This document shows, piece by piece, positions 14,661 to 46,648 of a stretch of 64,000 bases of DNA. Every line of letters begins with the position of its first letter. Positions within the stretch are counted from its first letter, which is position 1. The DNA is taken from contig JAJEBV010000035.1 of NCBI GenBank assembly GCA_022822365.1, forward strand, positions 10,082 through 74,081, given 5' to 3'. The DNA is from Thermoanaerobaculia bacterium (GTDB lineage Bacteria > Acidobacteriota > Thermoanaerobaculia > Multivoradales > Multivoraceae). The notes below the pieces were generated by a model, which did no database searches, was not told the DNA's origin, and worked only from the letters and a program-made list of their open reading frames with translations. A program made the translations under genes and the position numbers.

Positions 14661-14914
14661 TCTGACGTTACTCCTTGTGGCGCAGCCGGACTGCGGAGAC
14701 GATTGTGTGGGCGCCGCCCATCCTAGCGCAAGTCCGACCGCGGGTGGCAAGCCGCGTCGCAGTCGCCGCGAAATCAACTGACGAGCCAGGACCTCCAGGG
14801 CCGGCATCGGGCCCGGCGTCGCGCGGGCAGATCGACTTGATGGACCATGGAGATAGCATGGCCGTCCTTTCCCGTGACCGTCAAGCAAACTCTCGCCGAT
14901 CAGAGGAGACCGCC

Positions 14915-21230: not shown

Positions 21231-24200
21231 ATGACCCGACCTTCGAAACGAGCCGACAGCGCCTCCGGCTACCGCGACGGACGCCGGGGCGCCGCCCCGG
21301 TTCTCCTCGCGGTGCTCCTCCTGAGCGCGGCGGGTGTCGCCAGGGCGCAGGAGTCCGCCTCCTGCACCGCCACGTCCGCCGCCGTCAGGGAGACGAATCC
21401 CAAGGACGACGCGGCGGCCGAGGCGCTGGCCATGGACTGCGCCTTCCTGCTGGACATCAAGGGCACGCTGGAGGGCAACTCGCCAACCAAGCCGCTCAAC
21501 TGGGCGGCGAACCTCGACATGGCCGATTGGAACGGCATCTCGTTGACGTCCCGCGGCAACCGCGTCGGCGGCATCCTGCTCCCGTCCTGGGGACTGGACG
21601 GCGCAATGCCGACGAGCTTCGCCGCCCTAGGCGGGCTGACTTCGCTTCGGATCACGAGCAGCGGATTGGCCGGCGACGTCCCGGCTCTGCCCGCCAGCCT
21701 GCAACACCTCGACGTCAGCGAGAACGCGTTGGCCGGGACCATCCCCGACCTGAGCGCCCTGACCAGCCTCCGGCAAGTCAACCTCAGCGCCAACGAACTG
21801 ACCGGCGGCATCCCGGCCCTTCCCCCCAGCCTCGCCGCCCTGCGGCTGATCGACAACGATCTGTCCGGCGAGATCGGGGACTTGAGCTCCGTGACCAGCC
21901 TGCTGCACCTTCACCTGGACTACAACGGGTTCACCGGCGACATCCCGGACGCAACCGAGCTGCCCGAAAGGCTTCAGCAGCTCCAGATCAGTCGGAACAG
22001 GCTGAACGGGAACTCCTTTCCCGATCTGAGCGCGCTGACCAGCCTGGTCCACATCTGGCTAGGCGGCAACGAACTGAGCGGAACGCTGCCCGACGCCAGT
22101 TCGCTGCCGGCCGGCATCGAGCGCCTTCTGATCTACGACAACCGACTGACGGGGACCATCCCCGATCTGAGCCCGCTGATGTCGCTCGCCGACCTCTATC
22201 TGTGGGAAAACAAACTGAGCGGTCCGATTCCGCCCGCGAGCGCGCTCCCTCCGAACGTTCAGCGGCTCGCGCTCGGCGGCAACCATCTCGACCACGCAAT
22301 CCCCGACCTGAGCGGACTGACCGCCCTCGAGTGGTTCTACGCGTCCGGGAACGCCTTGACCGGCAACGTCCCGACCGCCACCGAGCTGCCAGCGGGCCTC
22401 GAGCGCCTCATCCTCGGCGGCAACGAACTGACGGGCGGGATTCCGGATCTCGGCACGCGCACTTCGCTCACGCACCTTGATTTGCACCTCAACGCACTGA
22501 CCGGTTCGATCCCGACCACCCTGCCGCCGAGTCTCCAGACCCTGCACCTTGCCGGCAACGACCTCGCCAACGCGATTCCCTCACAGCTTGGCGGTCTGAC
22601 CGCTCTGACGCAGCTCTCGCTCTGCGGCGCCAGACTGACGGGGACCCTGCCGCCGGCCCTGGAGACCAGGCGCCGTCTGGGAACGCTCGCTGTTTCCTCC
22701 TGCGCCGCAATCGCGGACGCTTCGGCGACGGAGGGCGCGGCCGTCGAGTTCACCGTCACGCACGACACCTTCCCCGTGCCGGGCGGCGCCGGGGCGGCGG
22801 ACCTCACCCTCTCGTACGAAACGGCTGACGGCACGGCGACGAGCGGGGACTACACGGGGACAGCCGAAGGCGCGGCGGGAACCGTGACGATCCGCGGCAA
22901 CACGAACACGGAGACAACCACCAGTACGGCGACGATATCCATCGCCACGACGGAGGACGCTGCCATCGAGAGCGACGAAGAGTTCACCGTCACCGTGGCT
23001 CTCCCGAAGGGGACGGAAAGCGTGTTCCTCACACGGGCCGAGGCGACCGGCACGATCGAGGACGACGCGCGCGCGGACGTGACGGTCGACCTCGGCCTCC
23101 CGTCGGCCGGCGCGGTGACGGAGGGCGGCACGCTGACGATCAGCGCGACGGTGAGTCAGGCGCCGTCGGGAACGAGCCTGAGCATCCCCCTCCAGCGGGT
23201 GACGGGAGCTGTCTCGACCGCGACCGCCGCGGACTACTCGCTGGCCGCGGCGATCACGATCGCCGACGGGATGACGACCGGCACGGCCACCCTGACCGCG
23301 GCAGACGACACCGCGGACGAGCCGGTCGAGACTCTCCGTCTCGAGCTCGGGACGCTGCCCGCAGCCCACGCGCGCGGTCCGACGCCTGATGTGGATATCG
23401 CGATAAGCGACAACGACCCGACGACCGTGACGCTGACCACGCCGGACGCCGCCGCCCGGGAGGGCGACGCGTCGGACACCGCCACGATCCGCCTGACGCT
23501 CGGCCGCGGCCTCGTCTTCGGCGAGAGTCTGGCGATTCCGCTCCAGTTCGACGGCGGCGACGCAGGCACGGACTTCACATTGGCCCAGGCCGGCTCGCGA
23601 ACAGGCGTCGCGTTCGATGCGACGAACAGCACGGCGACCTTCACCGGTCCGAGCGCCAGAACAGCGGATCTCGTACTGACTCCGGCATCCGACCCCGATG
23701 CCGAGGACCTTGCGGTGACCGTGTCCATGCCGGCGACTTCGACCGGCGCCGCGCCGAAGCTCACCGCGAGGAACCTCGACGGCGGCGCCGCGGGCAGTCT
23801 TTCGGGACACGGCCTGATCACGATCACCGACGACGAAACGAAGAGGCTCCTCCTCTCCGTGACGAGATTGATGACCGTGGTCGAGGAGAGCAACGCGAGC
23901 TACACGGTGAAGCTTGCTTCCCGGCCGACCAGCGACGTCACGGTAACCGCTGACGGCCACGAGCGCACCGCCCTGATGCTCGACAAGGCGACCCTGATCT
24001 TCTCGGCATCCGCCTGGAATGCGGCGCAGACCGTCACCGTTACGGCCACTCCCGACCCGGACACCGCGAACGAAACCGTCACACTGACGCACGCAGCCAG
24101 CGGCGGCGGCTACAACGGCGTTTCGGAGACCGTGACGATCGTCGTGACGGACAACGACGAGACGGAGCCGCCGCCACCGCCGGCGCCCGAACCACCACCG

Positions 24201-24893
24201 CCGGCGCCGGAACCACCAACGCCAAAGCCCGAACCGCCACCACCGACGCCGGAACCGCCGGAGGCGAGCTTCAGCGTTGCCGGCGCCGCGTGCGCGGACG
24301 ACCTCTGCACGGCCCTCACCGGCGTGCCCGTAACCTTCGAGGACACGAGCACCGGCGCCGTCACGGAACGCGCATGGCATACCGGTGACAACGGCGTCTT
24401 CGACGACTCGACTCTTGCCCACGCCTGGACGGAACCCGGCTTCTACCGGCTAACGCTGACGGTCAGCGGCCCCGGCGGATCGGACGATACTCACGCCGAC
24501 TTCCTGGTCCGGCCGGGCGATCCCGCGGGAACCTGCGATCCCGACGACTTCACCCTCTGCCTCCAGGACGAGCGCTACCGGGTCGAGGTGGACTGGTGGA
24601 CGGCGGGCGGCGAAACCGGACGGGGCGCCGTCGTCCGCGAGGGCACGAACGACTCCGGCATCTTCCGGTTCTTCGACGACGCGAACTGGGAGGTTCTCGT
24701 GAAGGTCCTGGACGCCTGCGAGGTGGATGGCCGCCACTGGTTGTTCGCGGCCGCCACCACGGACGTGGGCTACGAGATCGCCGTGACCGACACGGCGGGC
24801 ACGGGCCCTCCGCGGGTGTACCGGAACGAACCCGGCATGCCGGCCGCGGCCACTACCGATACGAGCGCCTTTCCGAACGCCTGCGAACATTGA
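21231..24893 (+). CDS. Giant secreted protein: plant-type LRRNT and about sixteen 24-residue LRRs, Calx-beta-like repeats, a Pro-rich linker, a PKD domain and a conserved four-cysteine C-terminal domain
   Basis: 1220 aa with a signal peptide. LRR consensus LxxLxxLxLxxNxLxGxIPDLSxL. PPPPAPEPPPPAPEPP linker. PKD motif (VTFEDTSTG...WHTGDNG). Confidence 0.8.
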   Translation: MTRPSKRADSASGYRDGRRGAAPVLLAVLLLSAAGVARAQESASCTATSAAVRETNPKDDAAAEALAMDCAFLLDIKGTLEGNSPTKPLNWAANLDMADWNGISLTSRGNRVGGILLPSWGLDGAMPTSFAALGGLTSLRITSSGLAGDVPALPASLQHLDVSENALAGTIPDLSALTSLRQVNLSANELTGGIPALPPSLAALRLIDNDLSGEIGDLSSVTSLLHLHLDYNGFTGDIPDATELPERLQQLQISRNRLNGNSFPDLSALTSLVHIWLGGNELSGTLPDASSLPAGIERLLIYDNRLTGTIPDLSPLMSLADLYLWENKLSGPIPPASALPPNVQRLALGGNHLDHAIPDLSGLTALEWFYASGNALTGNVPTATELPAGLERLILGGNELTGGIPDLGTRTSLTHLDLHLNALTGSIPTTLPPSLQTLHLAGNDLANAIPSQLGGLTALTQLSLCGARLTGTLPPALETRRRLGTLAVSSCAAIADASATEGAAVEFTVTHDTFPVPGGAGAADLTLSYETADGTATSGDYTGTAEGAAGTVTIRGNTNTETTTSTATISIATTEDAAIESDEEFTVTVALPKGTESVFLTRAEATGTIEDDARADVTVDLGLPSAGAVTEGGTLTISATVSQAPSGTSLSIPLQRVTGAVSTATAADYSLAAAITIADGMTTGTATLTAADDTADEPVETLRLELGTLPAAHARGPTPDVDIAISDNDPTTVTLTTPDAAAREGDASDTATIRLTLGRGLVFGESLAIPLQFDGGDAGTDFTLAQAGSRTGVAFDATNSTATFTGPSARTADLVLTPASDPDAEDLAVTVSMPATSTGAAPKLTARNLDGGAAGSLSGHGLITITDDETKRLLLSVTRLMTVVEESNASYTVKLASRPTSDVTVTADGHERTALMLDKATLIFSASAWNAAQTVTVTATPDPDTANETVTLTHAASGGGYNGVSETVTIVVTDNDETEPPPPPAPEPPPPAPEPPTPKPEPPPPTPEPPEASFSVAGAACADDLCTALTGVPVTFEDTSTGAVTERAWHTGDNGVFDDSTLAHAWTEPGFYRLTLTVSGPGGSDDTHADFLVRPGDPAGTCDPDDFTLCLQDERYRVEVDWWTAGGETGRGAVVREGTNDSGIFRFFDDANWEVLVKVLDACEVDGRHWLFAAATTDVGYEIAVTDTAGTGPPRVYRNEPGMPAAATTDTSAFPNACEH

Positions 24894-25029
24894 AGAGGCG
24901 GCGCGGGCGCCAACGCGCTCGCCGCGCGGACCCGAGTTCCGATAAGGTCGGAGAGTCACCTCTGGTGGCGGCAGCCCCTTGGACAGGAGTCGGGGAGATG
25001 ACAACCCGGATGTAGCGACAGTCAGTCTG

Positions 25030-28000
25030 ATGGTTCGTCGGGCAACCCGGCTGTTGCCCGCGCCACTTGCGGCCCTGTTCCTGTTCGGCGTGGGGTCGCG
25101 TCTTCACGCCCAGACGACCTGCACGACAACCGACACGGCGGTCGCGGCCATAGGCGCGAGCGACCCCGCCGCGCTGGCCGGCGACTGCACGATCCTGCTC
25201 GGCGCGAAGGCGGGCTGGGGAGGCAGCTCGACCACGCTGAACTGGGCAAGCACCCTGAGCATGTCCTCGTGGGACGGAGTCGCCGTGAGGGACAGCCGCG
25301 TCGTCCGTCTCGATTTTCGCTTCAAGAGTCTCTCCGGGAGCATCCCCGATCTGAGCGGCCTCGCCAACCTCGAGCGTCTGGATCTGAGCTGGAACGGCCT
25401 GACCGGGAACATCCCGGCCACACTGGGTTCCCTCACCAAACTCACGGCTCTCGTTCTGCACGGCAACCAGTTGACCGGAAGCATCCCCGACCTGAGCGGA
25501 CTCGCCAACCTCGAGACCCTGGACCTGGGCTCTAACGGCCTGACCGGGAACATCCCGGCCACACTGGGTTCCCTCACCAAACTCAAGTGGCTCTCTCTGA
25601 CCACCAACCAGTTGGACGGGAGCGCCCCCGCCCTTGGCGCCCTCGTCAACCTCGAGGACCTCATTCTCTCCAAGAACCAGCTCTCCGGGAGTATCCCCGA
25701 CCTCAGCAGTCTCGCCAGTCTCGAACAGCTCGATCTCGCCGGCAACCGGCTGACGGGGTCGATCCCCGCCACGCTCGGTTCACTTGCCAACCTGGAGCAA
25801 CTGACTCTCTGGAACAACCAACTGTCGGGAAGCATCCCCGACCTGAGCGGACTCTCCAACCTGGTCAGCCTCCATCTCCACCAGAACCGTCTGACCGGGA
25901 GCATCCCGGCTTCGTTGGGGTCGCTCGCCGAACTCCTGAACCTGCAACTCCACAAGAACCAGTTGACGGGGAGCATCCCCAAGGAGCTGGGCTCTCTCGC
26001 CAAGCTCCGGCAGCTCTTCCTCAACGAAAACAGGCTGACGGGCAACATCCCCGCGGAACTGGGTTCTCTCGTCAACGTGACCAACCTTCAGTTGCACAAG
26101 AACCAACTGACGGGGCCGATCCCCGACCTGAGCGCCCTCACGAGTCTCTGGCTGCTCTCGCTCGAGGACAACCAACTGACGGGGCGGATCCCCGACCTCG
26201 ACGACCTTGCAAGCCTCGCGTATCTCTCGCTCGAAGACAACCAACTGACGGGAACGATCCCCGCTCTTCCCGCCAGCGTCCAGTCCTTGAGCCTTCAACG
26301 CAACCAGGTCTCCGGGAGCATCCCCGACCTGAGCGCCCTCACGGGCCTCCACACGCTGTACCTCCATCAGAACGAGCTGACGGGGACGATCCCCGCAACG
26401 CTGGGCGACCTGACCAGCCTCGGGCAACTGCATCTCGCCGCGAACAGGCTGACCGGGGGCATCCCCGGCGACCTGGGCAAACTGACCAGCCTCTGGGGTC
26501 TCTCTCTGTGCGGCAACGATCTCGATGCCGCGGCGACCCTGCCGACGGCGCTGCAAGCCCGCCGGACGGCGTCGGAACTGGACGTCTGGCCATGCGTCTG
26601 GATCGACGACGCGACGGCTGTAGAAGGGCAGCCCCTCGCGTTCACCGTGACGTACTCGACCCAACCGGTGCGGGGAGCGACCGGCGCCGCCAGTCTGAGA
26701 CTGACCTGGTGGACGATCGACGGCACCGCAAAGACCCCCGGCGACTACACGAGAAGGTCGGGCCTGATCACGATTCCCGGCAACACGGACAGTTCGACCT
26801 ACCTCAGCACTGCGACGGTCAGCGTGCCGACCGTCGTCGACGCCGTCGCCGAAGGCGCGGAGACCTTCATCGTCCGGATCAACAGCAGTGCCGCGGTCTT
26901 CGTAGACCCCGACGCCGCGACGGGCACCATTACCGAGCCGATCCCCGATCCGACCGTCGATATCTCCGTCAACAACGGCGGCTCGCTGACCGAAGGCGGG
27001 ACGGTGACGATCACGGCGACGGTCAGCCGGGCGCCTTCCGGCTCGAGCCTTGCCGTCCCCTTGCAGCGGGTCGCGGGCCACTCCGCCGCTGCAACCACGG
27101 ACTACTCCCTGTCCGGCTCGCCGGCGGGCACGATCACCGTGGCCGACGGCGCGACAACCGGCACGCTCACCCTGACGGCGGCGAGCGATTCCATCGACGA
27201 AACCGACGAGACGCTCCGCCTGACGCTCGGCGCGGTAGCCGGCTACGACCACGGCTCGAACTCCCACGTGGACGTCACGATCACGGACAACACGGCGACC
27301 TCCGTGACCCTGTCCCTGCCGGACGCCGCCGCCGAAGAAGGCAACGCGGCAAACACCGCCACCATCCGGCTGACCCTGGGCCGCGGCCTGGTGGACGGCG
27401 AGGTCCTGGCCGTACCGTTGCAGTTCACGGGCGGCGCGGCTGGCACGGACTTCACGCTGGCGCTCTCCGGGGCGCCGTCCGGCGTCACCTTCGACGCGAG
27501 CAGCAGCACGGTCACCTTCACCGGACCGCAGACGGGCGCCGCCGCCACCGCGGCGGACATCACCCTGACCCCCGCCGACGACGACGACGCGGAAGACCGA
27601 ACCGTCACCGTGTCCATCCCCGCGACCTCCACCGGCGCCGGGACGATCCTCACCGCCACCAATCTCGACGGCGGCGCCACGGGCAGCCGCACCGGCAACG
27701 GCCAGATCGCGATTGCCGACGACGACAGGAAGGCGCTCGTTCTCCTCCCGACGACGTCGGTAACCGTGGTCGAGGAAGCCACGGAGACCTACACTGTGAA
27801 CCTCGCCACGCGGCCCAGGGGCGACGTGACCGTCGCCATCACCGGCTATGGACAGACGGACTTGACGCTCGACAAGGCGAGCCTGACCTTCCGGGCCACG
27901 ACCTGGAACGTGCCGCAGACCGTCACCGTGACCGCCAACCCGGACACGAACACGGCGAACGAGTCCATCCCGCTGACGCATACCGCCAGTGGCGGCGGCT

Positions 28001-29454
28001 ACGCCTCCATCGCCGGCACGCTGACGGTCAACGTGACGGACAACGACACGGCCGGTCTTGTCATCTCGACCATGGTCCCGGTGGACGAAGGACGCAGTGC
28101 AACCTACACGGTCAAGCTCGCCACCGAACCGAGCGCCACCGTCACGGTTGTCGTCTCCGGCTTCGAGAACTCCGACCTGACCCTCGACGAGACGGCCCTC
28201 ACCTTCACGACCGCCAACTGGAACGAAGAGCAGACGGTGACGGTCACCGCCGACGAGGACACCGATCTCGCGGACGATACGGTCGACCTCGACCATGTGG
28301 CCGATGGCGGGGACTACGCGGGCGTGACGCGATCCATCACCGTCAACATCAAGGACGACGACGAAGCGGTCGCCACCTTCGAACTGGCGGGCGCGAGCAT
28401 CGACGAGGCGGGCGGCAGCCGAAACGTCATGGTCCGCCTGGACCCGACGCCGATCAAGTCCACCATGCTGAGCTACACCCTGTCCGGCGCACCCGTCCAC
28501 GGCGACGACTACACGGTCAGCGGCGCCAACGGCAACTCGGGGACGGCATCGGTTCCCGCGGGCGCGGCCAGCGTCGACATCACCGTAGAGATCATGGACG
28601 ACGCGGTGGTCGAAGACGCCGAGACCATCGTCCTGACCCTGGCCGACGGGCCGGGTTACACGCCGGGCACTCCGCGAGTCCATCGCCTGATCATCATGGA
28701 CAACGACGAGGCGGAACCGCCGCCACCACCACCGCCGCCACCCGAGCCACCGCCGACCGTGGAGCCGCCACCTCCAACGCCAACCCCGCCGTCCGGGCCG
28801 GTCGGGCCGGCCGGGCCGCTCGTGGCGAGCTTCGCCATCTCCGGCGCCGAGTGCACGGAAGACCTCTGCACGACCTTTACCGGCGCCCCGGTCACCTTCA
28901 CGGACACGAGCACCGGCGCCGTGGCCGAGCGCAAGTGGGACACCGGCGACGGAGAGACGTCACGCAGGCCGATCCTCAACCACTCCTGGGCCGAGCCCGG
29001 CTTCTACAGGGTGGCGCTCACCGTCCGCGGCGACGGCGAGGAAGACCAGGCCGAAGCCGACTTCCTGGTCCGGCCCAGCCAGCCGGACGGGACCTGCGCT
29101 CCCGACCCGTGGACACTCTGTCTCCTGAACGAGCGCTACCGCGTGCAAGTCGACTGGCGGACACGGAGCGGCGACACCGGCCGAGGCTTCGCCCTGTACC
29201 AGGGAACCAACGATTCCGGGCTCTTCTGGTTCTTCGACCGGGACAACTGGGAGGTCCTCGTCAAGGTGCTGGACGGCTGCGCCGTCGACGGCCGCCACTG
29301 GGTGTTCTCGGCGGCAACGACCGACGTCCGCTACGAGATGACGGTGACCGACACGCTTGGCGCGAGCCCCCCGAAGGTCTACATCAACGAACTCGACAGG
29401 CCCGCCGTCGCCCTCACCGATACGTCGGCTTTCCCCAACGGTTGCGAACGTTGA
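25030..29454 (+). CDS. Second giant secreted LRR / Calx-beta-like / PKD protein, paralogous to the upstream gene
   Basis: About 1475 aa from the ATG at 25030 (signal peptide). Same architecture and C-terminal domain as 21231-24893. Near-identical internal LRR DNA repeats. Confidence 0.8.
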   Translation: MVRRATRLLPAPLAALFLFGVGSRLHAQTTCTTTDTAVAAIGASDPAALAGDCTILLGAKAGWGGSSTTLNWASTLSMSSWDGVAVRDSRVVRLDFRFKSLSGSIPDLSGLANLERLDLSWNGLTGNIPATLGSLTKLTALVLHGNQLTGSIPDLSGLANLETLDLGSNGLTGNIPATLGSLTKLKWLSLTTNQLDGSAPALGALVNLEDLILSKNQLSGSIPDLSSLASLEQLDLAGNRLTGSIPATLGSLANLEQLTLWNNQLSGSIPDLSGLSNLVSLHLHQNRLTGSIPASLGSLAELLNLQLHKNQLTGSIPKELGSLAKLRQLFLNENRLTGNIPAELGSLVNVTNLQLHKNQLTGPIPDLSALTSLWLLSLEDNQLTGRIPDLDDLASLAYLSLEDNQLTGTIPALPASVQSLSLQRNQVSGSIPDLSALTGLHTLYLHQNELTGTIPATLGDLTSLGQLHLAANRLTGGIPGDLGKLTSLWGLSLCGNDLDAAATLPTALQARRTASELDVWPCVWIDDATAVEGQPLAFTVTYSTQPVRGATGAASLRLTWWTIDGTAKTPGDYTRRSGLITIPGNTDSSTYLSTATVSVPTVVDAVAEGAETFIVRINSSAAVFVDPDAATGTITEPIPDPTVDISVNNGGSLTEGGTVTITATVSRAPSGSSLAVPLQRVAGHSAAATTDYSLSGSPAGTITVADGATTGTLTLTAASDSIDETDETLRLTLGAVAGYDHGSNSHVDVTITDNTATSVTLSLPDAAAEEGNAANTATIRLTLGRGLVDGEVLAVPLQFTGGAAGTDFTLALSGAPSGVTFDASSSTVTFTGPQTGAAATAADITLTPADDDDAEDRTVTVSIPATSTGAGTILTATNLDGGATGSRTGNGQIAIADDDRKALVLLPTTSVTVVEEATETYTVNLATRPRGDVTVAITGYGQTDLTLDKASLTFRATTWNVPQTVTVTANPDTNTANESIPLTHTASGGGYASIAGTLTVNVTDNDTAGLVISTMVPVDEGRSATYTVKLATEPSATVTVVVSGFENSDLTLDETALTFTTANWNEEQTVTVTADEDTDLADDTVDLDHVADGGDYAGVTRSITVNIKDDDEAVATFELAGASIDEAGGSRNVMVRLDPTPIKSTMLSYTLSGAPVHGDDYTVSGANGNSGTASVPAGAASVDITVEIMDDAVVEDAETIVLTLADGPGYTPGTPRVHRLIIMDNDEAEPPPPPPPPPEPPPTVEPPPPTPTPPSGPVGPAGPLVASFAISGAECTEDLCTTFTGAPVTFTDTSTGAVAERKWDTGDGETSRRPILNHSWAEPGFYRVALTVRGDGEEDQAEADFLVRPSQPDGTCAPDPWTLCLLNERYRVQVDWRTRSGDTGRGFALYQGTNDSGLFWFFDRDNWEVLVKVLDGCAVDGRHWVFSAATTDVRYEMTVTDTLGASPPKVYINELDRPAVALTDTSAFPNGCER

Positions 29455-38409: not shown

Positions 38410-39447
38410 CTATGCCCAGCGCGGCCCAGGCTTGTTCGTGGACGGCGTAGCATGGACTCCGGGAATCCGATCCCTGATCGCGAGCGCCAGTTCCCATCCG
38501 TAGCTCCGCGTGTTGTCCGTCACGACCCGCTTGGCTCCCGTCGCCTTGACGTACGCGAGGGTCTCCTCAAAGTCGGCATGATTCGACAAGGCAACACAGT
38601 AGCTGCTACTGGAGTACATTGTCAGCGGATCGTTGTGGCCATCCCGACCCGACATGAAGGCGCTGCACGCGATGCTCGTTCCGCCAACCGGCTCGTTGCC
38701 CCGCCCATCGCCCTTCGAGTACAACCGCACGTAGGAACGCTGCCTCAGTGCTGACTCGCCTTCATCCGAATCGAGCGCGATCAGATCGGCAGCCGCTAAG
38801 CCGAACCGCCTATAGACCTCGACTTCCCCAATCAGCCGCCGGCTCGCCACGATAGGAACATCAACGCCGCCAGCGAGCACCGTCAATACGCGCTCCATCG
38901 TTCCTCGGTGGGCCCTGATATGTACCGGCCCCTGACGTACGCGCTCACACACCAGAACGAACAGGCATGCCTCTGCTTCCGCCTGCGTGTACTTGCGAAC
39001 GCTCGCCGGACTGCCGTAGGTGGCGTCGACGACGAGTTCGTCAACTTGGATCACTCGATCGAGCGGCCAGCCGAAGTCGCCGGAGTAGCCGAGTCGTCGT
39101 CCGTCCGAAAGCTCCAGTGCCGTCTGGCAGGCACCGAGCATGTGGTTCGACGGCAGCAGAAGGAGCTGCGAAGCGTCTTCAAGGACGCGCTTCTCGCCTC
39201 GCTTCAGCCTATGGAGATTGGATCTGTACTCGAGGTCGACATCACGCTCATCCACGAGCAGCGCATACGTTTCCGGGCTCATGATGAGGTCCTGAAGCCC
39301 CTTGCTGCGCTCGAAGTCCGCCATGTGGTCGTCGTGCACATGGGTCTGAATGCGCCACGGACAGCCCTCGGCGAATCCGTCGCACACCACCGCCGGGCCA
39401 AGACGCACCGCACCCGTAGCCAAGACGTCAACTTCTGCTGGAGCCAC
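38410..39447 (-). CDS. MBL-fold metallo-hydrolase; last gene of the sulfur-modification/defence operon
   Basis: HVHDDH metal-binding motif. 20-nt overlap with the upstream gene. Confidence 0.65.
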   Translation of the reverse strand: MAPAEVDVLATGAVRLGPAVVCDGFAEGCPWRIQTHVHDDHMADFERSKGLQDLIMSPETYALLVDERDVDLEYRSNLHRLKRGEKRVLEDASQLLLLPSNHMLGACQTALELSDGRRLGYSGDFGWPLDRVIQVDELVVDATYGSPASVRKYTQAEAEACLFVLVCERVRQGPVHIRAHRGTMERVLTVLAGGVDVPIVASRRLIGEVEVYRRFGLAAADLIALDSDEGESALRQRSYVRLYSKGDGRGNEPVGGTSIACSAFMSGRDGHNDPLTMYSSSSYCVALSNHADFEETLAYVKATGAKRVVTDNTRSYGWELALAIRDRIPGVHATPSTNKPGPRWA

Positions 39448-40168
39448 TCTGGACGTTCTCCCGAAGATGGGCCCGAATCAGGCCTTCGATGCTCCCCCGC
39501 CCAACTTGAGCCATCGATTCGCCGAACTTCTCGGCTCCTACCAACGTGAAAATCCTCTTACCAAGCCGGCCTGATGCGCCGCGCAAGCCGATAGCCCGAA
39601 TCGCGCCAGCAAGAGCCGCATCGCGTTCGGCCTGTAGCAAGCTCCCGAGAGCGGCCACGACGTCCTCGTCAACGACGGCACCCATGAACACGTAACGCTT
39701 CTCTACGACCGGCCGCATCCCCACGACTTCCTGGACGCAGTCGGGAACGGCGCGACCGGAGCGCTCGCGAAGCTGCACGACCTGACGCACTTCCTTGCTC
39801 GTCAGGTGCTCGGACAAGACCGCTTCCGCGACCACCCGCCGGTCTTCGCTATCCGCGAGCCGGACCAGCTCGGCAGCGGATGAGAAGCCGACGAAGTCCC
39901 CTCTTCCCCAGTCCACCAAATGCTGAACCTCCGGCGGAAGGTCCAGTAATCGGAGGAACCGGCCAACACCCGTAACGTCGAGGTCTGTTTTCCTGGCACT
40001 CTCGACTCGGCTCGAACCCTCCCGCTCAGCGCGCCTGTACAGCCGCCCACACTCGACCGGGGAAAAGGGTCTGTTGCGTTGATGCCGCCCGTATCCGACG
40101 GACATCTTGAGCTGTGCGAGTTCCTCGGGACTCAGCCCCCGCCACACCCTATGAACCAAGGACGCCAC
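39428..40168 (-). CDS. Hypothetical protein in the defence operon, possibly a ParB-like or HTH DNA-binding partner
   Basis: 246 aa. Overlaps both neighbours. No confident family assignment. Confidence 0.4.
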   Translation of the reverse strand: MASLVHRVWRGLSPEELAQLKMSVGYGRHQRNRPFSPVECGRLYRRAEREGSSRVESARKTDLDVTGVGRFLRLLDLPPEVQHLVDWGRGDFVGFSSAAELVRLADSEDRRVVAEAVLSEHLTSKEVRQVVQLRERSGRAVPDCVQEVVGMRPVVEKRYVFMGAVVDEDVVAALGSLLQAERDAALAGAIRAIGLRGASGRLGKRIFTLVGAEKFGESMAQVGRGSIEGLIRAHLRENVQSGSSRS

Positions 40169-40973
40169 GTTCCATCAGCGCTTCCTCGATCAGCATGGCC
40201 GCAGTCTCGTCTTGGTTCATCCCCTCCTCCACCGCGACACGGCGAAGCGCAGCGTGAACGTCCATCGTCACGGTGGCGTTGATCTGAGTCACCTTGTCAG
40301 CGCTCTTCGCCCTCTCGATCAGCTCGTCGACACTCCCTTCGGGGGCTCGTTCGCGCACCTTCGTCAGCTTCTTCTGCTGAACACCGGACATGTCTCCCAT
40401 CGCCCTAGCCAGCTTCACGGCGTCGGCAACGATCGGTTGGCCGTCCGGCCCGACGGACGTGTCCTGAGCCTTCAATGCGACCTTCACGTCCACAGCACCG
40501 TCGTCGACCATCTTCTTCAGCTCCGGCTTGAGCCTCGGGTACTTGACGTGGCTGCGGACTGTGTCAGCCGAGAGTCCGGTCGCCTCCACGACAGCCTTCT
40601 GCGAGCCGTAGTGGTTGTACAGATGGGTGATTCCGTCGACAAGCTCCTTGCCCGAGAGCTTTCTCCGAATCAGATTCTCCGTGATCGAGATGGCCTTGGC
40701 GTGAGCCTCGGGAACACGCTCGTCCAGAATCGCTGCAGGGATCGCCTCCCTGCCGAGCCGCCTGTGCGCGAGGAATCGTCGCTGTCCCGTGAGGATCTCC
40801 CACCGCCCCGTCTCAACCGCCTCGCACACCACGATGGGCTGCAGAAGGCCCAGTTTCTCGATGCTGCTCGCCAACTCATCCACGTCTGCCATGGAAGGCG
40901 AGGTTCGCGCCTGCGCCTTGCCGATCGTCAGGTCGTCCAGCGGCACATCCCTGTATCCGACTATCTTCGCCAT
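40149..40973 (-). CDS. ParB/Srx-fold (ParB N-terminal nuclease-like) protein, DndB-like in position
   Basis: LLQPIVV...GQRRF ParB-N motif; 274 aa. Confidence 0.6.
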   Translation of the reverse strand: MAKIVGYRDVPLDDLTIGKAQARTSPSMADVDELASSIEKLGLLQPIVVCEAVETGRWEILTGQRRFLAHRRLGREAIPAAILDERVPEAHAKAISITENLIRRKLSGKELVDGITHLYNHYGSQKAVVEATGLSADTVRSHVKYPRLKPELKKMVDDGAVDVKVALKAQDTSVGPDGQPIVADAVKLARAMGDMSGVQQKKLTKVRERAPEGSVDELIERAKSADKVTQINATVTMDVHAALRRVAVEEGMNQDETAAMLIEEALMERGVLGS

Positions 40974-42358
40974 GCTCGTTCTCCAGGTTCGTCAGTCACC
41001 GGCGCGAGATCGCCGGCGGAAAGCCCGAGGATACTCATCAGCTCCTGCCTCGTGAACGCCTCCCCGGCCATGCCGGACGACTCCACCACGTCCTCGAAGA
41101 GGCGCGCCTTCTCTTCGAGGATCGACCCGATCCGCTCCTCGATCGAGTCCTGCACGAGGAACCGGATCACGTGCAGGGGCTCCTCTCGCTCGAAACGGTG
41201 CGCTCGGAAGATCGCCTGCATCTCGACCGCCGGATTCCACCATCGGTCGAAGAGAACCACATGGGACGCCTCTCCCAAGTTGAGGCCGACACCGCCCGCG
41301 CGCAGCGAGACGAGCAGAACCCGAGGCGCCCTTTCTTCCCTGAAGCGGTCCATCGCCGCCTCACGCTTCGCGAGCGGCATCGCACCCGTGACGAGGTCCG
41401 TAGTTAGGCCCAGTCGCGGCGAAATCGCCTCCAACGTCCTCACGAACTGGGAGAAGACGAGAATCCGCGCCGAAGGACCCGCCGCATGGCACAGCACCCG
41501 CAGGGAATCCAGTTTGGACGAAACGCTCATAGAGGAATCGAAATTGCAGATCAGCTTCAGTCGCGTGAGGAGCCCCAGCAAAGCCGCAGTGTCGCCGTCC
41601 TCGTTGCGCCGCCGCACAAGACGGGCACGCGTCGTCCAGATCTCGTCGTACTCGGCGCGCTGGTCCGCCGACAGATCCACCGGGAGGTCCTGAATCAGGA
41701 CCGGAGGCAGTTCCGCACGGACCGCGGTCTTCCGCCGTCTGAGCATCAGCCTGTCCAAGTCTCTTTGGAGCTCCCCCCTATGCGCCCTCCGGACTGGACC
41801 GTCGGATTCCAGAAACTCCAACAGCGTCTGCAGTTCTGCCTCGTCGTTCTCCAGAGGCGTAGCCGACAGTGCCCACGCACGAGTCCGCGGAAGCAGAAGG
41901 CAGGCCAAAGCCGTTGCTGAGTTGCGGTTCTTGATCCTCTGGGCCTCGTCCAGCACAACCAAGTCAAACGTGCCAGAAGGAATACGGTCGAGTCCGTCCT
42001 GGCGAATCTGCTCATACGAAGCGATGAGGACCGGGATCGGAAGAAGGTAATACGCCTCTCGGTCGGTCGCTCGTCCTTGCACCCGTCTTGCGGTCAGGGA
42101 AGGTGCCCAAGCGTTGATCTCCCGCAGCCAGTTCGTAGTCAACGATGCAGGCGCCACGATCAGCACCCGGCGAATCCCGTGGTCCCTTCTCAACAGCAGC
42201 GCTAGAGCGACCGCAGCCTGTACTGTCTTGCCGAGGCCCATCTCGTCGGCCAAAAGAGCACCGCGCGTGCGATAGAGGAAGGCCACCCCTTCCCACTGAT
42301 AGTCGCGCAGCGTTGAAGGCACCCCGAGTTCCTCCTCCGCCATCTGGCGGAGGGTCAT
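40961..42358 (-). CDS. SNF2-family helicase (DEXH-box plus helicase-C)
   Basis: LADEMGLGKT, DEAQRIKN and helicase-C motifs. ATG at 42358 preceded by GGAGAAGGA. Confidence 0.75.
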   Translation of the reverse strand: MTLRQMAEEELGVPSTLRDYQWEGVAFLYRTRGALLADEMGLGKTVQAAVALALLLRRDHGIRRVLIVAPASLTTNWLREINAWAPSLTARRVQGRATDREAYYLLPIPVLIASYEQIRQDGLDRIPSGTFDLVVLDEAQRIKNRNSATALACLLLPRTRAWALSATPLENDEAELQTLLEFLESDGPVRRAHRGELQRDLDRLMLRRRKTAVRAELPPVLIQDLPVDLSADQRAEYDEIWTTRARLVRRRNEDGDTAALLGLLTRLKLICNFDSSMSVSSKLDSLRVLCHAAGPSARILVFSQFVRTLEAISPRLGLTTDLVTGAMPLAKREAAMDRFREERAPRVLLVSLRAGGVGLNLGEASHVVLFDRWWNPAVEMQAIFRAHRFEREEPLHVIRFLVQDSIEERIGSILEEKARLFEDVVESSGMAGEAFTRQELMSILGLSAGDLAPVTDEPGERAWRR

Positions 42359-42381
42359 CGCATCGGGGTCCTTCTCCGAAT

Positions 42382-44172
42382 CTAGGGAAACGCCCACACT
42401 GCCGCGGCTTGCCTGGCGATCAGGTTCTGCCGCTCCTCGACCGCCTCGGGAGTCCACTCACACTGCTCGCAGAGCGCCCGAGTGATGGCAACGCTGCTCC
42501 GCTTGTAGCTACCGATCTTGTCGTGAAACGAGCGGTTGAAGTTGGTACCGGCTCGATTGTCCGTCGGCCCCATGAGAGTCAGATTACCCACCCGGTCCAC
42601 CCAATCGGCGCAATCCACCTCCCGAAAGCCGCTCCAAGTTGGCCAGTGCTGAGCCGCCGAGGGCAGGACGTGTTCTAGCGTGGTTTTGCCCTCGTTTAGC
42701 AGCGGAGGATCGTTCTGCTCTGCCCGGTTCACGCCTCGCAACAACTGGCGGGCCAGGCGTCCTCTCTTCATTCGAGTACTCCGAAGTGCCCGGATGAAGT
42801 ACGCGTCGTCCAGCACACCCCATCCGTCGCAACCGCCAAGGAACTCCCCGAAAGCAAGGTCCGCGACATCTGTGGCCGCGGCGATCTCCCGAGCGTAGTC
42901 GGCGAACTTCCTCTCAAACTCCGACGGGGCGAAGCGCTGCCTCACGAACGCCGTCCTGAGTACAAAGGCCGACAACCGCTGTAAGTTCCTCATCACGGCC
43001 TTGGCGATCCGGGCGCGACGTCGGCCATCAGTATCGCGGACAAACCTGTCCAGCAGGGCGAAAACGAGCGGGTGAGTGACCTTGTAGCCGCGGAGTTCTC
43101 CCAGCAGCACGGAGAGATTCCGCCGCGACGTTACAGCACCCGCCGCCACGTCGAACACCCCGACAAAGCCCGGATCGGGATTCGTGGAAGTCATCATGCG
43201 AAAGAGTTCCGCAGCCGCCGGCGAGCAAACATCCTCGACCAACGCTGACACATAGCGCGTCGATTTGGCCTTTTCTTCGCCAGCTTCTGTCGTCACGGAC
43301 CGACGACGATCCGTCAGCGCCCTCCGTGCATCGCGATAGAAGTGGCTGCCTCTCAGGAACCCCCACTTGCACTGAAGACGGCACCGTAGGTACTCAGCAG
43401 CGAGATTACCTCTCGGGAAGAGAGTGCGAACACGCTCGAGATGCTCGTGGATCGCCTCCTTCCCCTCTAAATCACTGTCTCCACCGAAATAGGAGTAGAG
43501 GTGATTCCGAAGACGGTCCAGATCGTCCAGGGTCTTGCCTCTGGAATTGATCGTCTCGAAAACGGCATTGGCATCGACTTCCGGAGGAAGGCGGAGACAC
43601 GCCACTTCAAGACGTTGGATCAAATAGTCGAAGTAGTCCCTTGATGCTTCGAGCCCCAGCCCGTCGACGAACTGCTCTATCTTCTGCCACGCGGCCGTCA
43701 GCTTGCCGTTCGTCCCGATCGTCCGGCCCCGGATCATCTGTCGGTAGGCCGCCGAGTCATTCCGCGGAGGTTTGAGCCGGCGCGTGTACTCGTCTGCCTC
43801 CGCCAGCCGGCAAGGCCGGTTTGCGTCCAAGTCGAACAACAATCGAAGCGCGATCGCCTCGCGCTGAGGATCGCTGTCGTCCCGAGCGAACCGCCTGCAG
43901 AAGGCGGCGGAGACGAGTGAAACTGTGACCATCCTCTGCTGGCCGTCGTTGATCTCCCACACTCCGTCCCCGTTGCCGGCGAGGATCACCGCACCAAGGA
44001 AGTAGCAACCGCTCTTCGCCTCGACGGCCTCCTGGAGGTCCTCAAGCAGGTCGCTAACCTCGTTCTGACTCCAGTCGTAGTAGCGCTGATGCCACGGCAC
44101 CTCGAATCGCCCATCGAAGAACAGATCTGAGAAGCGCGTTGCCTCGGCTTGGACGACGGTCGGCTGGGTCAT
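42382..44172 (-). CDS. DUF262 (ParB-like NTPase, DGQQR) plus DUF1524 (His-Me finger) nuclease, GmrSD/SspE-like
   Basis: N-terminal WHQRYYDW...INDGQQR and C-terminal TLEHVLP...W. ATGA overlap with the upstream PAPS-reductase-like gene. Confidence 0.75.
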   Translation of the reverse strand: MTQPTVVQAEATRFSDLFFDGRFEVPWHQRYYDWSQNEVSDLLEDLQEAVEAKSGCYFLGAVILAGNGDGVWEINDGQQRMVTVSLVSAAFCRRFARDDSDPQREAIALRLLFDLDANRPCRLAEADEYTRRLKPPRNDSAAYRQMIRGRTIGTNGKLTAAWQKIEQFVDGLGLEASRDYFDYLIQRLEVACLRLPPEVDANAVFETINSRGKTLDDLDRLRNHLYSYFGGDSDLEGKEAIHEHLERVRTLFPRGNLAAEYLRCRLQCKWGFLRGSHFYRDARRALTDRRRSVTTEAGEEKAKSTRYVSALVEDVCSPAAAELFRMMTSTNPDPGFVGVFDVAAGAVTSRRNLSVLLGELRGYKVTHPLVFALLDRFVRDTDGRRRARIAKAVMRNLQRLSAFVLRTAFVRQRFAPSEFERKFADYAREIAAATDVADLAFGEFLGGCDGWGVLDDAYFIRALRSTRMKRGRLARQLLRGVNRAEQNDPPLLNEGKTTLEHVLPSAAQHWPTWSGFREVDCADWVDRVGNLTLMGPTDNRAGTNFNRSFHDKIGSYKRSSVAITRALCEQCEWTPEAVEERQNLIARQAAAVWAFP

Positions 44173-45383
44173 CCCGCCGCGACTTCCCTGGGCGCCAATC
44201 CGACAGCCACGCGAAGCGCTGAACGGCACTCCTCCCGCACCAAGTCACGGCGCCAGATGTCCTCGATGACCTCCTGCTCGGCAGGCGAAATGAGCTGTTG
44301 ACTCACATCGTCCTGAAGAGCCCGCAGTTCATCGAGGATCCTCTTGCGCACACCAAGCGTGAACGGTCCCATGACCTGACTGCCGTCAGCTCGGAACCGG
44401 ACATTCCCGTCCCTGCGAACCGACTCGCGGTTTCCGTCTTGCTCCCGGAGTTCAACGAGCCACTCCCGGAACTCGAAAAGCCGGCTGAAGACATCGGCTT
44501 CCGCATGGCCCGACGCGATCAGACCCCGGAGGCTTCGGTCCTTCTTTACGACGGTGCAGGTCCAGCAGCCGAAACGAGGCGAGTTCGTCCCGCATGAAGG
44601 AGCGTCGTCCTTCGTCAACACGAGAGGACATTCGCCCCCGCCGGCATTGCGGTAGAGCGTGATCAGATTTCTGTGGGTGCCGCCCCAAGGCGGACGGCGC
44701 TGCATCAGCACCAGCCAGACATCCTGGTCCTCAAAATCGGCGAGTGGAGCGAACATCCAGCAGCGATCCATGGTGCCGTGCGGGTTCAGTTTCCCGGCCG
44801 CAACCCCGCGCCTGTCCATCGTCCGACGCCGGTTGTCAGACTCGCTCCTGCGCGTGCCCACCAGCAGAACAGCACCGCCATATGTGCGAATGAGATTGGC
44901 GAGCAGCCGGTTGGTTGGATGGATCTTCATTCGGTCCGTACACCAGCGGAAGTTCCGAGTCGGCGGTATGTAACCGCGACCGATCACGTTGACCCAGAAT
45001 GTCTGATCGACATGAGGCTTCGTGATCCGAGTCTCAATGGGCAGGTCGGCGGCGGCCGCCGCGCCCCCGATCTCCGTGAGAGTCGTTCGCAGGTGGCCGA
45101 CGACGAGCGGTGACTCGACTAGCGTGTCGTTGCCGACGACGTACACCTTGCGACACCGCTCGGCTGCCGGCAGGTCCGCGATGACCTCCCAAGTCAGTTG
45201 AAGCAGGAGCGTGGAGTCCTTGCCGCCCGAGAATGCCACGACCCACGGATGAGCATGGCCAGCCAGATACTGCTCCCTGATGGCGAGCTTGGCGGCACCG
45301 AGCCGCTTGACGACCTCGGCGACGCCCCCGCCAGCATCGGCGGAATGGCCTGAAGAGACCACCGCAGTCATGCCGTGACCCAA
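44169..45383 (-). CDS. PAPS-reductase-family ATP pyrophosphatase, DndC/SspD-like
   Basis: SGGKDS PP-loop and a C-terminal cysteine cluster (C-x9-C-x2-C); 404 aa. Confidence 0.7.
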   Translation of the reverse strand: MGHGMTAVVSSGHSADAGGGVAEVVKRLGAAKLAIREQYLAGHAHPWVVAFSGGKDSTLLLQLTWEVIADLPAAERCRKVYVVGNDTLVESPLVVGHLRTTLTEIGGAAAAADLPIETRITKPHVDQTFWVNVIGRGYIPPTRNFRWCTDRMKIHPTNRLLANLIRTYGGAVLLVGTRRSESDNRRRTMDRRGVAAGKLNPHGTMDRCWMFAPLADFEDQDVWLVLMQRRPPWGGTHRNLITLYRNAGGGECPLVLTKDDAPSCGTNSPRFGCWTCTVVKKDRSLRGLIASGHAEADVFSRLFEFREWLVELREQDGNRESVRRDGNVRFRADGSQVMGPFTLGVRKRILDELRALQDDVSQQLISPAEQEVIEDIWRRDLVREECRSALRVAVGLAPREVAAG

Positions 45384-46648
45384 CGCTGCTCTTGAGCGTG
45401 CCTTTCCGGCTGGCGACCAGACGTCCCGACCTCGGTCCAGCTAGAAGAAAGCTGCCGAAGGTCGGCTATCGTCTCTCTCAGTCGCGCCACGGCGAAGTCC
45501 ACTTCCTCCACTGTCGTACTCCGGCCTAAGCTGAATCGAACCGAGCAGGCTACCGCCTCCTCGGACAGCCGAAGCGCAGTCAGGACATGGGACGGCTCCA
45601 CGCGGGCCGAAGTACAGGCCGAACCTGATGAGATCGCCACTTCGTCCCGAAGGGCCACTAGCAAGGCCTCGCTGTCTATGCTGGCAAAGCCGGCGCTGAG
45701 GATTCCCGGCACTCGAACTCCCTGGTTGCCATTCAGGAAGCTGCAGGGGATCTCTTCTAGTAGAACCCGGAGCCGCCGGTCCAGCGCCGCCGTCGCCTCA
45801 GCATCTTCGTCCAGGCGCTCGCACGCCAGCTCAGCGGCCTTGCCCATCCCCACAACCTGGTGAGTGGCGAGGGTGCCGGAACGAAGGCCTTGTTCCTGGT
45901 CGCCGCCATGCATCTGAGGTTCAAGCGGGGAGGGACAGGAACTCCGTACGTAGAGCGCGCCAACCCCCTTCGGACCGTACATCTTGTGGCCGCTCAGGGA
46001 AACGAGATCCGCCCGTATCTCCCGTACATCCAGCGGCAAGCGCGCCGCACTTTGGCTCGCGTCAACGTGGAAGACGACGCCGCGCTCCCGCGCAAGGCGT
46101 CCAACGGCCGCCACGTCGGTGATCGTGCCGATCTCGTTGTTTACGTGCATGAGGGAGACGAGAATCGTGTCGCGCCGCAATACACGCTCGATGCTCTGCC
46201 ATGTGACGGTTCCGTCAGTGTGGGGGTCGACCAGCGTAACCTCGAACCCCTCCCGAGCCAGTCGAGCACAGGAATCCAGGACCGCCTTGTGCTCCATTGA
46301 CGAAGTGACGATATGTCGGCCACGGCCGCGCGCACCGCAGGCGGCACCCTTGATCGCCAGATTGATCGACTCGGTAGCCCCGGAGGTCCAGACGATCTCA
46401 GCCGGGTCGGCAGCCACGAGTTGGGCCACTTGTTCGCGGGCCGCTTCCACCGCCGCCTTGGCCTCGACGCCGAATCGATGCGGCCGCGAGGCCGCATTGC
46501 CGAAGAGCCCCTCCAGCCCCAAGCAACGGGACATCGCCTCCGCGACCTCCGGTGCTACAGGCGTCGTCGCGGCGTAGTCAAGGTAGACGCAACTCGCCGT
46601 TCGCCGTTCGGTGCCCTGGTGGTAACGGTTCATCAAGAGGCGCTTCAA
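45368..46648 (-). CDS. Cysteine desulfurase (IscS/NifS-like), DndA/SspA-like in position
   Basis: SGHKMYGPKG PLP-lysine motif and SSGSACTS active-site cysteine loop; 426 aa. Confidence 0.8.
   Translation of the reverse strand: MKRLLMNRYHQGTERRTASCVYLDYAATTPVAPEVAEAMSRCLGLEGLFGNAASRPHRFGVEAKAAVEAAREQVAQLVAADPAEIVWTSGATESINLAIKGAACGARGRGRHIVTSSMEHKAVLDSCARLAREGFEVTLVDPHTDGTVTWQSIERVLRRDTILVSLMHVNNEIGTITDVAAVGRLARERGVVFHVDASQSAARLPLDVREIRADLVSLSGHKMYGPKGVGALYVRSSCPSPLEPQMHGGDQEQGLRSGTLATHQVVGMGKAAELACERLDEDAEATAALDRRLRVLLEEIPCSFLNGNQGVRVPGILSAGFASIDSEALLVALRDEVAISSGSACTSARVEPSHVLTALRLSEEAVACSVRFSLGRSTTVEEVDFAVARLRETIADLRQLSSSWTEVGTSGRQPERHAQEQRWVTA

Follow-up and report, generated by a model that had tools for sequence, protein, structure and literature searches.

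The 64,000-nucleotide window analysed here, from the Thermoanaerobaculia bacterium assembly GCA_022822365.1 (contig JAJEBV010000035.1), contains an island of seven minus-strand genes at positions 38410-46648 that we read, with a probability of roughly 55%, as a phosphorothioate (PT) restriction-modification system in which two genes form the writer and restriction falls to two arms, the second being a module of a new type. The island is a composite cassette built from two parts: a unit encoding a DndA-type desulfurase, a short DndC and a DndI-like nuclease; and a separable module of an Snf2-family ATPase, a ParB-family protein, its paralogue ParB′ and a β-CASP nuclease of the metallo-β-lactamase (MBL) fold. 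This module accompanies three kinds of PT writer that have only their modification in common, which is the strongest argument that its role is linked to PT. PT-based restriction-modification is itself already known, and the island is not a new category of system; what is new is a widespread DndC lineage without DndD and DndE, together with a four-gene module (three genes at its core) that swaps among three major PT writer types.

In characterized PT systems, a persulfide on DndA or IscS supplies the PP-loop ATP pyrophosphatase DndC. Self DNA is marked by PT, and DndFGH, DndI, SspE, and SspFGH harm unmarked DNA, with PT modulating their NTPase activity (PMC11662687, PMC10853773, PMC8092258). 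The first two genes of the island encode counterparts of both writer proteins. The dndA-type cysteine desulfurase of the IscS/NifS class (45368-46648, minus strand) is read from a 426-aa open reading frame (ORF), whose true start may lie a few codons inside. It matches Pfam Aminotran_5 at 6e-81 and the PADLOC profiles for SspA and DndA at 1.8e-149 and 1.5e-146, and it scores below the NCBIfam equivalog cutoffs (405 against 480 for DndA, and likewise below for IscS); on these matches we classify it as a desulfurase-class protein without subfamily assignment. The pyridoxal phosphate-binding lysine (SGHK) and catalytic cysteine (SSGSAC) are invariant in 53 orthologues. Six cassettes lack DndA (L017, L021, L048, L055, L072, and L074, in the L numbering that we use for individual loci) and presumably use the housekeeping IscS. 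Separately, a second cysteine desulfurase gene sits just outside the cassette in L011, L013, and L015 from Bryobacterales, where it lies downstream of the nuclease, and in the gammaproteobacterial L022.

The second gene (44169-45371, minus strand) encodes a 400-aa PP-loop ATP pyrophosphatase with the DndC set of Fe-S/dyad cysteines. A reading made from the sequence alone had called this protein DndC/SspD-like. Its NCBIfam TIGR03183 score of 343 bits exceeds the cutoff of 290 and its PADLOC match to DndC (8e-111) contrasts with a mere 1.4e-5 for SspD, which identifies a DndC-type protein rather than SspD or TtcA; the DndC half of the earlier call therefore stands, the SspD half falls, and the protein is a DndC equivalog and not a tRNA thiolase. 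The motifs SGGKDS, RWC, GEC, SCG, and CWTC are invariant in 61 sequences. We found no solved structure of a DndC. The sulfur enzymes could in principle act elsewhere than on the DNA backbone, in RNA or tRNA thiolation or in a sulfur-containing base modification, since tRNA thiolases are among the PAPS-reductase/PP-loop enzymes and this truncated DndC lineage lacks its usual partners. We consider this extremely improbable: the DndC equivalog cutoff is passed with the DndC-specific cysteine pattern kept, the nearest relatives of the short DndC are DndCs, followed by DndD, and every partner protein handles DNA.

The DndC of the island is distinctly short. The TIGR03183 match covers profile positions 4-347 of 447 and leaves the last ~100 positions without a counterpart, and alignment to a canonical 492-aa DndC gives 41% identity over residues 31-374 with the canonical C-terminal ~100 aa unmatched. 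This C-terminal extension is the region of the Pfam Sp-DndD-like segment. The usual partners are missing as well. A tblastn search of the whole 64-kb window returned no match to DndD, DndE, SspB, SspC, or SspD, in agreement with the sequence-only reading, which had noted the absence of DndD, DndE, SspB, and SspC; PADLOC gave no match to DndB, DndD-H, SspB, SspC, SspF-H, or Pbe for any of the seven proteins, and no DndD occurs in the ~60 short-DndC loci that we compared.

A DndC-seeded metagenome scan separates the short form from its relatives. It yielded 80 loci, four at 62% identity or more and 76 at 52% or less. The GmrSD-family gene that follows dndC in the island does so in all four of the closer loci, with the full module where the contig is long enough (L087 and L088). 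Among the 76 more distant loci, DndD comes next wherever the contig reaches far enough, except in L117, L155, and L157, where no partner was detected downstream of DndC. The ~250-330-nt gap that precedes DndD in these distant loci corresponds to the canonical C-terminal extension. By these sequence comparisons the short DndC is a discrete lineage, and its clade appears to have swapped DndD/DndE for GmrSD and the module, losing the C-terminal region at the same time.

The third gene (42382-44172, minus strand) encodes a 596-aa GmrSD-family protein with an N-terminal DUF262 domain of the ParB-like NTPase type and a C-terminal DUF1524 domain of the His-Me nuclease type (Pfam GmrSD_N 1.4e-22 and GmrSD_C 5.1e-18). 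In PADLOC it matches HEC-06 (1.6e-65) and SspE (3.9e-10); it also matches 'Orf5' (3.6e-51), and since what 'Orf5' denotes is not established, we build nothing on it. Among solved structures its closest relative is DndI (9JFL, E 1.4e-13), which has the same length of 596 aa. The nuclease had initially been described as SspE-like; the DUF262/DUF1524 architecture behind that description is borne out, and the protein itself lies closer to DndI than to SspE. Experiments have established DndI as a PT-sensing restriction nuclease, an ATP-switching nickase that partners IscS-DndBCDE (PMC11662687). The DGQQR and E-H...N residues of the island protein are invariant in 54 sequences, and a HMMER alignment places Tyr25 of the hydrophobic PT-sensing patch of DndI opposite His28, with Trp27 adjacent. 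In three independent assemblies from Dadabacteria (L004-L006), the GmrSD and ParB genes are each split into two ORFs (11169-12976 and 14501-15326), which suggests that these two genes are decaying there, with DndA, DndC, Snf2, ParB′, and the nuclease intact.

The remaining four genes encode the module, and none of their products has a Dnd, Ssp, or Pbe match in PADLOC. Snf2 (40961-42358, minus strand, 465 aa) is a minimal Snf2-family ATPase and double-stranded DNA translocase, a bare two-lobe enzyme consisting of the RecA lobes only (Pfam SNF2-rel_dom 3.5e-43 and Helicase_C 1.4e-19). Its relatives in the PDB are ISWI, Chd1, and a Sulfolobus Rad54-like protein (~1e-38 to 1e-40), and its motifs GLGKT, DEAQ, and QAxxRAHR (motif VI) are conserved in 60 sequences; it falls far below the NCBIfam equivalog cutoffs for DpdE (74.5 bits versus 500), ZorD, and DrmD. 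The ParB-family protein (40149-40973, minus strand, 274 aa) combines an N-terminal CTPase-type domain with a helix-turn-helix (HTH) region. It matches Pfam ParB_N at 6.1e-16 and TIGR00180 at 72.8 bits (cutoff 58), its best PDB matches are the CTPase clamps Noc, ParB, and Spo0J, and its GxRR and ENLxR boxes are invariant in 75 sequences. These features predict a Noc/Spo0J-like CTP-binding clamp with intact nucleotide-binding motifs. ParB′ (39428-40168, minus strand, 246 aa) is a paralogue of the ParB DNA-binding domain without the CTPase domain; it matches HTH_ParB and ends in a ~90-aa α/β domain. HMM searches thus uphold the original DUF262/DUF1524, SNF2, and ParB-N calls, and the HTH_ParB match resolves what had been listed as an unknown 246-aa protein into the second member of the proposed ParB-like pair.

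The last gene of the island (38410-39447, minus strand) encodes a 345-aa protein with a weak Pfam Lactamase_B_2 match. Its AlphaFold model has a predicted local distance difference test score of 83, and the top Foldseek matches are Artemis, SNM1A, and Apollo, at E-values of ~1e-15 to 1e-17 and template modelling (TM) scores of 0.64-0.70; with CPSF73 included, the probability is 1.00 and the TM scores span 0.61-0.70. Among PDB entries, a profile of the family also matches aCPSF1, SNM1A, and FttA. The HxHxDH residues that bind metal, together with H102, D124, and H290, are invariant in 80 sequences, with one gap at H36. On the predicted structure, which shows the MBL motifs and an inserted CASP domain, we identify the protein as a β-CASP nuclease of the Artemis/SNM1A/Apollo type; the MBL fold assigned from the sequence is retained, and the general label of hydrolase is refined. 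The type VII CRISPR protein Cas14 is among the fold matches, and as a beta-CASP defence effector it makes a similar function plausible for this nuclease. The family is discrete and of modest size, with 216 representatives at E<=1e-30 among 1.84 billion; homologues of the nuclease number ~750. Throughout the island, essentially all the catalytic residues that we checked are invariant in 50-80 distinct orthologues per protein, down to 37-47% identity.

In two of the 50%-identity cluster representatives of the nuclease, P0343 (582 aa) and P0350 (459 aa and perhaps incomplete), ParB′ and the nuclease are naturally fused. The two genes usually overlap by 4-20 nt, and the fusions may be artefacts of gene calling across this overlap; as they stand, they argue that ParB′ and the nuclease act as a complex.

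The seven-gene arrangement is widely conserved. DndC-seeded look-ups at 91%, 66%, and 64% identity, in metagenome-assembled genomes (MAGs) of Holophagales, Gammaproteobacteria, and Dadabacteria, gave the same seven genes in the same order in all three cases. A nuclease-seeded scan with one genome per species found 118 relatives, from which 80 loci were kept, essentially one per species. The carriers belong to Acidobacteriota, Latescibacterota, Chloroflexota, Gamma- and Alphaproteobacteria, Bacteroidota, Dadabacteria, Thermodesulfobacteriota, Gemmatimonadota, Binatia, Poribacteria, Planctomycetota, Verrucomicrobiota, Actinomycetota, Armatimonadota, and Myxococcota, so that the cassette order is conserved across at least 15 phyla. 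Closest to the window, with identities of 91-96%, are MAGs from Thermoanaerobaculia and 'Ca. Multivorans'. Some carriers are complete MAG chromosomes, among them OZ242040.1, OZ251486.1, and OZ242005.1. Many carriers come from recognised sponge-symbiont lineages and a few from soil or peat, and the system appears to be concentrated in sponge symbionts. The same gene order in dozens of species-level genomes indicates that the arrangement is not due to chance.

To place the module among PT writers, we compared 86 loci using cassette and PT-writer queries only, with ORF clustering of 21 divergent loci. About 60 of the 86 have the arrangement of the window. The ParB-ParB′-β-CASP trio is present in 84, and 75 of those 84 also carry Snf2. 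In 79 of the 84, the trio has a PT writer at a distance of no more than 10 kb: the short DndC in ~60, canonical DndC-DndD-DndE in ~11, and SspB/C/D in seven. Loci whose nuclease is 44-53% identical to that of the window hold the trio, mostly with Snf2, away from any short DndC. Here it stands beside canonical DndC (492 aa)-DndD-DndE with DndA (L062, L067, L070, L075, L078, and L079, plus partial cases), beside SspB-SspC-SspD with SspA (L071 and L081), or beside an SspC...SspD variant (L073, L077, L080, L082, and L083). The writer and module ORFs overlap at dndE/snf2 in L062 and at sspD/snf2 in L071, which indicates that the two share operons and are not mere neighbours. Inverted units mark the seams of the composite, with breaks between gmrSD and snf2 in L051 and L054 and between snf2 and parB in L050. 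In a neighbour-joining tree of the nuclease, one large clade is tied to the short DndC and the basal clades to DndCDE or Ssp. The tree implies that the writer was exchanged several times, as seen at L040 and L069 and in the appearance of Ssp at two separate points. The co-conservation proposed for the seven genes therefore holds as far as their order is concerned, and the idea of a single, indivisible seven-gene system does not.

These data bear on whether the module might be an independent, PT-unrelated defence system that clusters with writers through defence islands. Five loci would agree with such a view, since they hold the module without a flanking PT writer (none within 10 kb in L027, L035, L066, L068, and L085), the module in L066 adjoining ftsA/ftsZ, and genes of the GmrSD type count as defence candidates even by themselves (PADLOC HEC-06). 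The writers in the 79 linked loci, however, have three unrelated architectures, and mostly they share a strand with the module and overlap it in their ORFs; with cassette and PT-writer queries and ORF clustering of the 21 divergent loci, no other type of defence system recurred beside the module; and signs of decay mark two of the five exceptions, L027 by its truncated ParB and L068 by a transposase. We judge independence from PT to be very improbable.

Several of these loci have peculiarities of their own. L068 carries an IS3-family transposase (HTH_Tnp_1 and rve; 6958-8384) where Snf2 would be, and L027 and L035, whose ParB matches are incomplete at 56% and 89% coverage, have neither a writer nor Snf2 upstream; all three look like degraded copies. 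In L084, a PLD (HKD)-SF2 helicase fusion (3466-5583) replaces the usual Snf2 upstream of DndD and the trio, and resembles the HKD and SF2-helicase nucleases described next to Dnd genes (PMC10853773). The five loci with the Ssp variant share two extra conserved genes between SspC and SspD (about 1800-6200 in each), encoding a 782-aa protein with two GHKL-type HATPase_c domains and a 688-aa protein without a Pfam or PADLOC match, which may be another PT-associated component.

A role in the maintenance or repair of PT DNA would also account for linkage to PT writers of any type. PT DNA is prone to oxidative cleavage, and the module could act on strand breaks or oxidised PT lesions as an SNM1-like 5′ exonuclease coupled to a translocase. 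The nearest structural relatives of the nuclease are the repair nucleases SNM1A, Apollo, and Artemis, and its sole NCBIfam match, at 1e-11 and well short of the cutoff, is to TIGR04122, the ligase-associated DNA-damage-response exonuclease. Set against this, the loci contain no conserved ligase, polymerase, or other repair partner, we know of no repair role for a ParB clamp plus paralogue, and defence modules typically show what is seen here, frequent partner swaps and a patchy horizontal spread over at least 15 phyla. Repair is thus an improbable function for the module.

In the restriction-modification reading that we favour, DndA would take sulfur from cysteine as a persulfide and pass it to the truncated DndC, which would activate a DNA backbone phosphate with ATP and insert the sulfur; these two proteins would suffice to make PT. 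In the first restriction arm, the DndI-like protein would read PT through its ParB-like NTPase, and the coupled His-Me nickase would damage PT-free DNA. In the second, ParB and ParB′ would load the complex on DNA, Snf2 would move it along the duplex, and the β-CASP nuclease would cleave DNA that lacks PT marks. PT on self DNA would stall or release this complex, as for DndFGH and DndI. Two arms served by one writer have a precedent in SspE and SspFGH, which protect additively (PMC8092258). A restriction role for the module, rather than one in writing, is suggested by its conserved nuclease and by model organisms, in which DndCDE and SspBCD work without helpers of this kind.

Several observations weigh against this reading. 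DndD and DndE are considered indispensable in canonical Dnd work and in comparative genomics (PMC10853773), and since our search for them covered 64 kb, the genome could encode both at another site. His28 aligns with Tyr25, the residue by which DndI senses PT, and PT sensing by the GmrSD arm is accordingly not assured. All carriers are uncultured MAGs, and five module loci have no PT writer nearby. In L050, Snf2 goes with the writer operon, and nine module loci have no Snf2, which would fit a helper role too, and a ParB-family NTPase that aids a DNA-modifying enzyme is known in DpdB, which works with DpdA (PMC12839542).

The last two points lead to the possibility that Snf2, ParB, ParB′, and the β-CASP protein are accessories of the writer that load, move, or nick DNA for the truncated DndC, with the module taking the place of the ATPase DndD, of DndE/SspB in binding or nicking DNA, and of DndB as the regulator from the ParB family. 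Window-type loci do lack DndD, DndE, SspB, and SspC, their DndC is without the canonical C-terminal region, and in L050 Snf2 lies inside the writer operon, separate from the trio. In described systems, DndB is a PT regulator of the ParB superfamily (PMC10853773), DpdA needs the ParB-like ATPase DpdB to insert its DNA modification (PMC12839542), and SspB has been described as a nickase (PMC12914056). The module is nevertheless found beside complete DndC-DndD-DndE and SspB-SspC-SspD sets that are self-sufficient in model organisms, and nine trio loci do without Snf2. An Artemis-like nuclease that keeps its metal ligands and is fused to a DNA-binding partner is, moreover, more effector-like. We therefore regard an accessory role as unlikely. 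For the same reason, the earlier suggestion that these proteins stand in the island 'instead of' DndD and DndE is probably not simply correct, since the module also accompanies complete DndCDE and SspBCD.

A more far-reaching version of our reading would make ParB-ParB′-β-CASP, with Snf2, a universal PT reader and effector, and at the same time make DndA and the truncated DndC a self-sufficient mesophile writer. The CTP-gated ParB clamp would scan DNA for PT and license the Artemis-like nuclease; because the module pairs with Dnd-type, Ssp-type, and short-DndC writers, it would need to recognise sulfur itself and not a sequence motif. We advance this combination tentatively, as less likely than not. 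If true, a two-gene writer would overturn the indispensability of DndD and DndE.

The layout of the island is that of a single compact unit. The seven co-oriented ORFs fill 38410-46648 by overlapping or abutting one another, with almost no intergenic DNA. The dndA and dndC genes share an ATGA at 45371-45368, and dndC and gmrSD share a second at 44172-44169; snf2 and parB overlap by 13 nt, parB and parB′ by 20 nt, and parB′ and the MBL gene by 20 nt. The sole intergenic gap, of 23 nt, separates the gmrSD stop codon (42384-42382) from the snf2 ATG (42358) and contains a ribosome-binding site, GGAGAAGGA, at 42377-42369, 10 nt upstream of the ATG. The overlapping minus-strand genes, the two ATGA couplings, and the ribosome-binding site before SNF2 were already recognized in the initial reading and can be seen directly in the sequence. 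An ATG at 42363 was considered as the Snf2 start and rejected, because it is out of frame (ATG CGA TGA); the real start at 42358 gives the 465-aa protein. The three-codon, out-of-frame mini-ORF at 42363-42355 overlaps the true start codon just past the ribosome-binding site, and it may be due to chance or act as a translational-coupling device.

The G+C content of the island is 62-64%, compared to ~69% in its flanks, which supports its horizontal acquisition by a sponge-associated Acidobacteriota genome (Thermoanaerobaculia/'Ca. Multivorans' relatives). The flanks hold ordinary chromosomal genes for a PQQ dehydrogenase and an NHL-repeat protein. There is no integrase among the flanking ORFs, no tRNA gene in the window, and no flanking direct or inverted repeat above chance level; no promoter-like sites were found, and terminator-like sites occur only at background level. 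A plasmid or phage origin is unsupported, given that searches of 72,556 plasmids, 50,697 phage records, and the IMG/VR contigs gave no match to the nuclease. Elsewhere in the window, two tandem plus-strand genes (21231-24893 and 24979-29454) encode giant proteins of 1220 and 1491 aa with leucine-rich repeats and PKD domains, the second of which also carries a Calx-beta domain. Such 'eukaryote-like' giant proteins are typical of sponge symbionts and fit the sponge-MAG affiliation of nearly all cassette relatives.

Many PT writers have been reported without a known restriction partner: 83.9% of sspBCD sets lack both SspE and SspFGH (PMC8092258), and DndFGH occurs in only 806 of 3416 nuclease-bearing taxa (PMC10853773). 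A module that tracks three unrelated writer types is a concrete candidate for a missing partner of this kind. If the reading is true, a ParB-type CTP switch and a β-CASP nuclease would be elements new to PT biology among the systems that we found described. The short-DndC clade offers a natural test of whether sulfur insertion needs DndD and DndE.

The sequence-only reading held that the combination matches none of the described Dnd, Ssp, DndFGH, SspFGH, or Pbe modules, and we agree: PADLOC has no Dnd, Ssp, or Pbe match for the module, and we found no paper describing the combination. PT catalogues list Dnd (with DndFGH, PbeABCD, or DndI), Ssp (with SspE or SspFGH), Tdp, and BREX type 4, and a Snf2, ParB, or β-CASP component appears in none of those that we found. 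The most detailed comparative study is anchored on DndD and DndE, treats both as universal, mentions no metallo-β-lactamase, and cites SNF2 solely as a domain of DndH (PMC10853773); with that anchoring, DndC-only loci would have been missed. A 2026 neighbourhood survey noted, without describing them, small clusters of uncharacterised DndCs in Sulfurimonas, Anaerolineales, and Burkholderia whose neighbours are P-loop or DUF262 genes; one of these clusters may be the present cassette. In sponge microbiomes, dnd genes have been reported as enriched but 'not functionally complete' (PMC5099237), and sponge Thaumarchaeota are reported to carry dndA, dndC, and 'dndB-like' DUF262/DUF1524 genes (PMC6790972); the cassette may explain both observations.

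The systems nearest to individual parts of the island differ from it in distinct ways. SNM1, Artemis, Apollo, and the bacterial TIGR04122 exonuclease resemble its nuclease in fold, size (~340 aa), and metal-binding motifs, but they are 14-20% identical to it in sequence, it reaches 44 bits with TIGR04122 where the cutoff is 325, and its context is ParB, Snf2, and PT rather than Lhr and ligase. The 7-deazaguanine system Dpd (DpdA-K) is likewise a defence island with a ParB-like NTPase (DpdB) and a Snf2 protein (DpdE), and the PADLOC DpdE profile matches the Snf2 core at 9e-59; the NCBIfam DpdE score is nonetheless far short of its cutoff, as given above, the cassette encodes no TGT/DpdA-like or DpdB-like protein, and the chemistry is another. 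TdpABC of thermophiles, which we compare by its description only (An et al. 2025), sets a precedent for a minimal writer, since one DndC-type enzyme there makes PT in the absence of DndD and DndE. As described, it has two restriction genes (TdpA and TdpB) where the island has five, and the hosts here are mesophilic symbionts.

SspABCD with SspE or SspFGH shares the DUF262/DUF1524 architecture and the principle of one writer with two arms (PMC8092258), and the module stands beside SspBCD in seven loci. In the island, by contrast, the writer is DndC-type and neither SspB (DUF4007) nor SspC (an Orc/Cdc6-type ATPase) is present in the window; SspF and SspH, a Walker-A protein and an FtsK-like protein, are unrelated to the module (PMC8092258). 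DndABCDE-DndFGH shares the DndA/DndC chemistry and, as an idea, a translocase-coupled nuclease restrained by PT on self DNA, whereas the window lacks the SMC-like ATPase DndD and the double ribbon-helix-helix protein DndE, and PADLOC finds no match to DndB (DGQHR) or to DndF, DndG, or DndH. The motor in the island is Snf2 and not of the FtsK/HerA type, and the nuclease is β-CASP and not of the restriction-endonuclease fold. In IscS-DndBCDE-DndI of Salmonella enterica Cerro 87 (PMC11662687), a desulfurase and a DndC writer are joined by a DUF262 (DGQQR)/DUF1524 (HNH) nuclease, as they are in the island. The island differs from that system in lacking DndB, DndD, and DndE, in its truncated DndC, in the alignment of His28 with the PT-sensing Tyr25, and in the four extra conserved genes for Snf2, ParB, ParB′, and the β-CASP nuclease.

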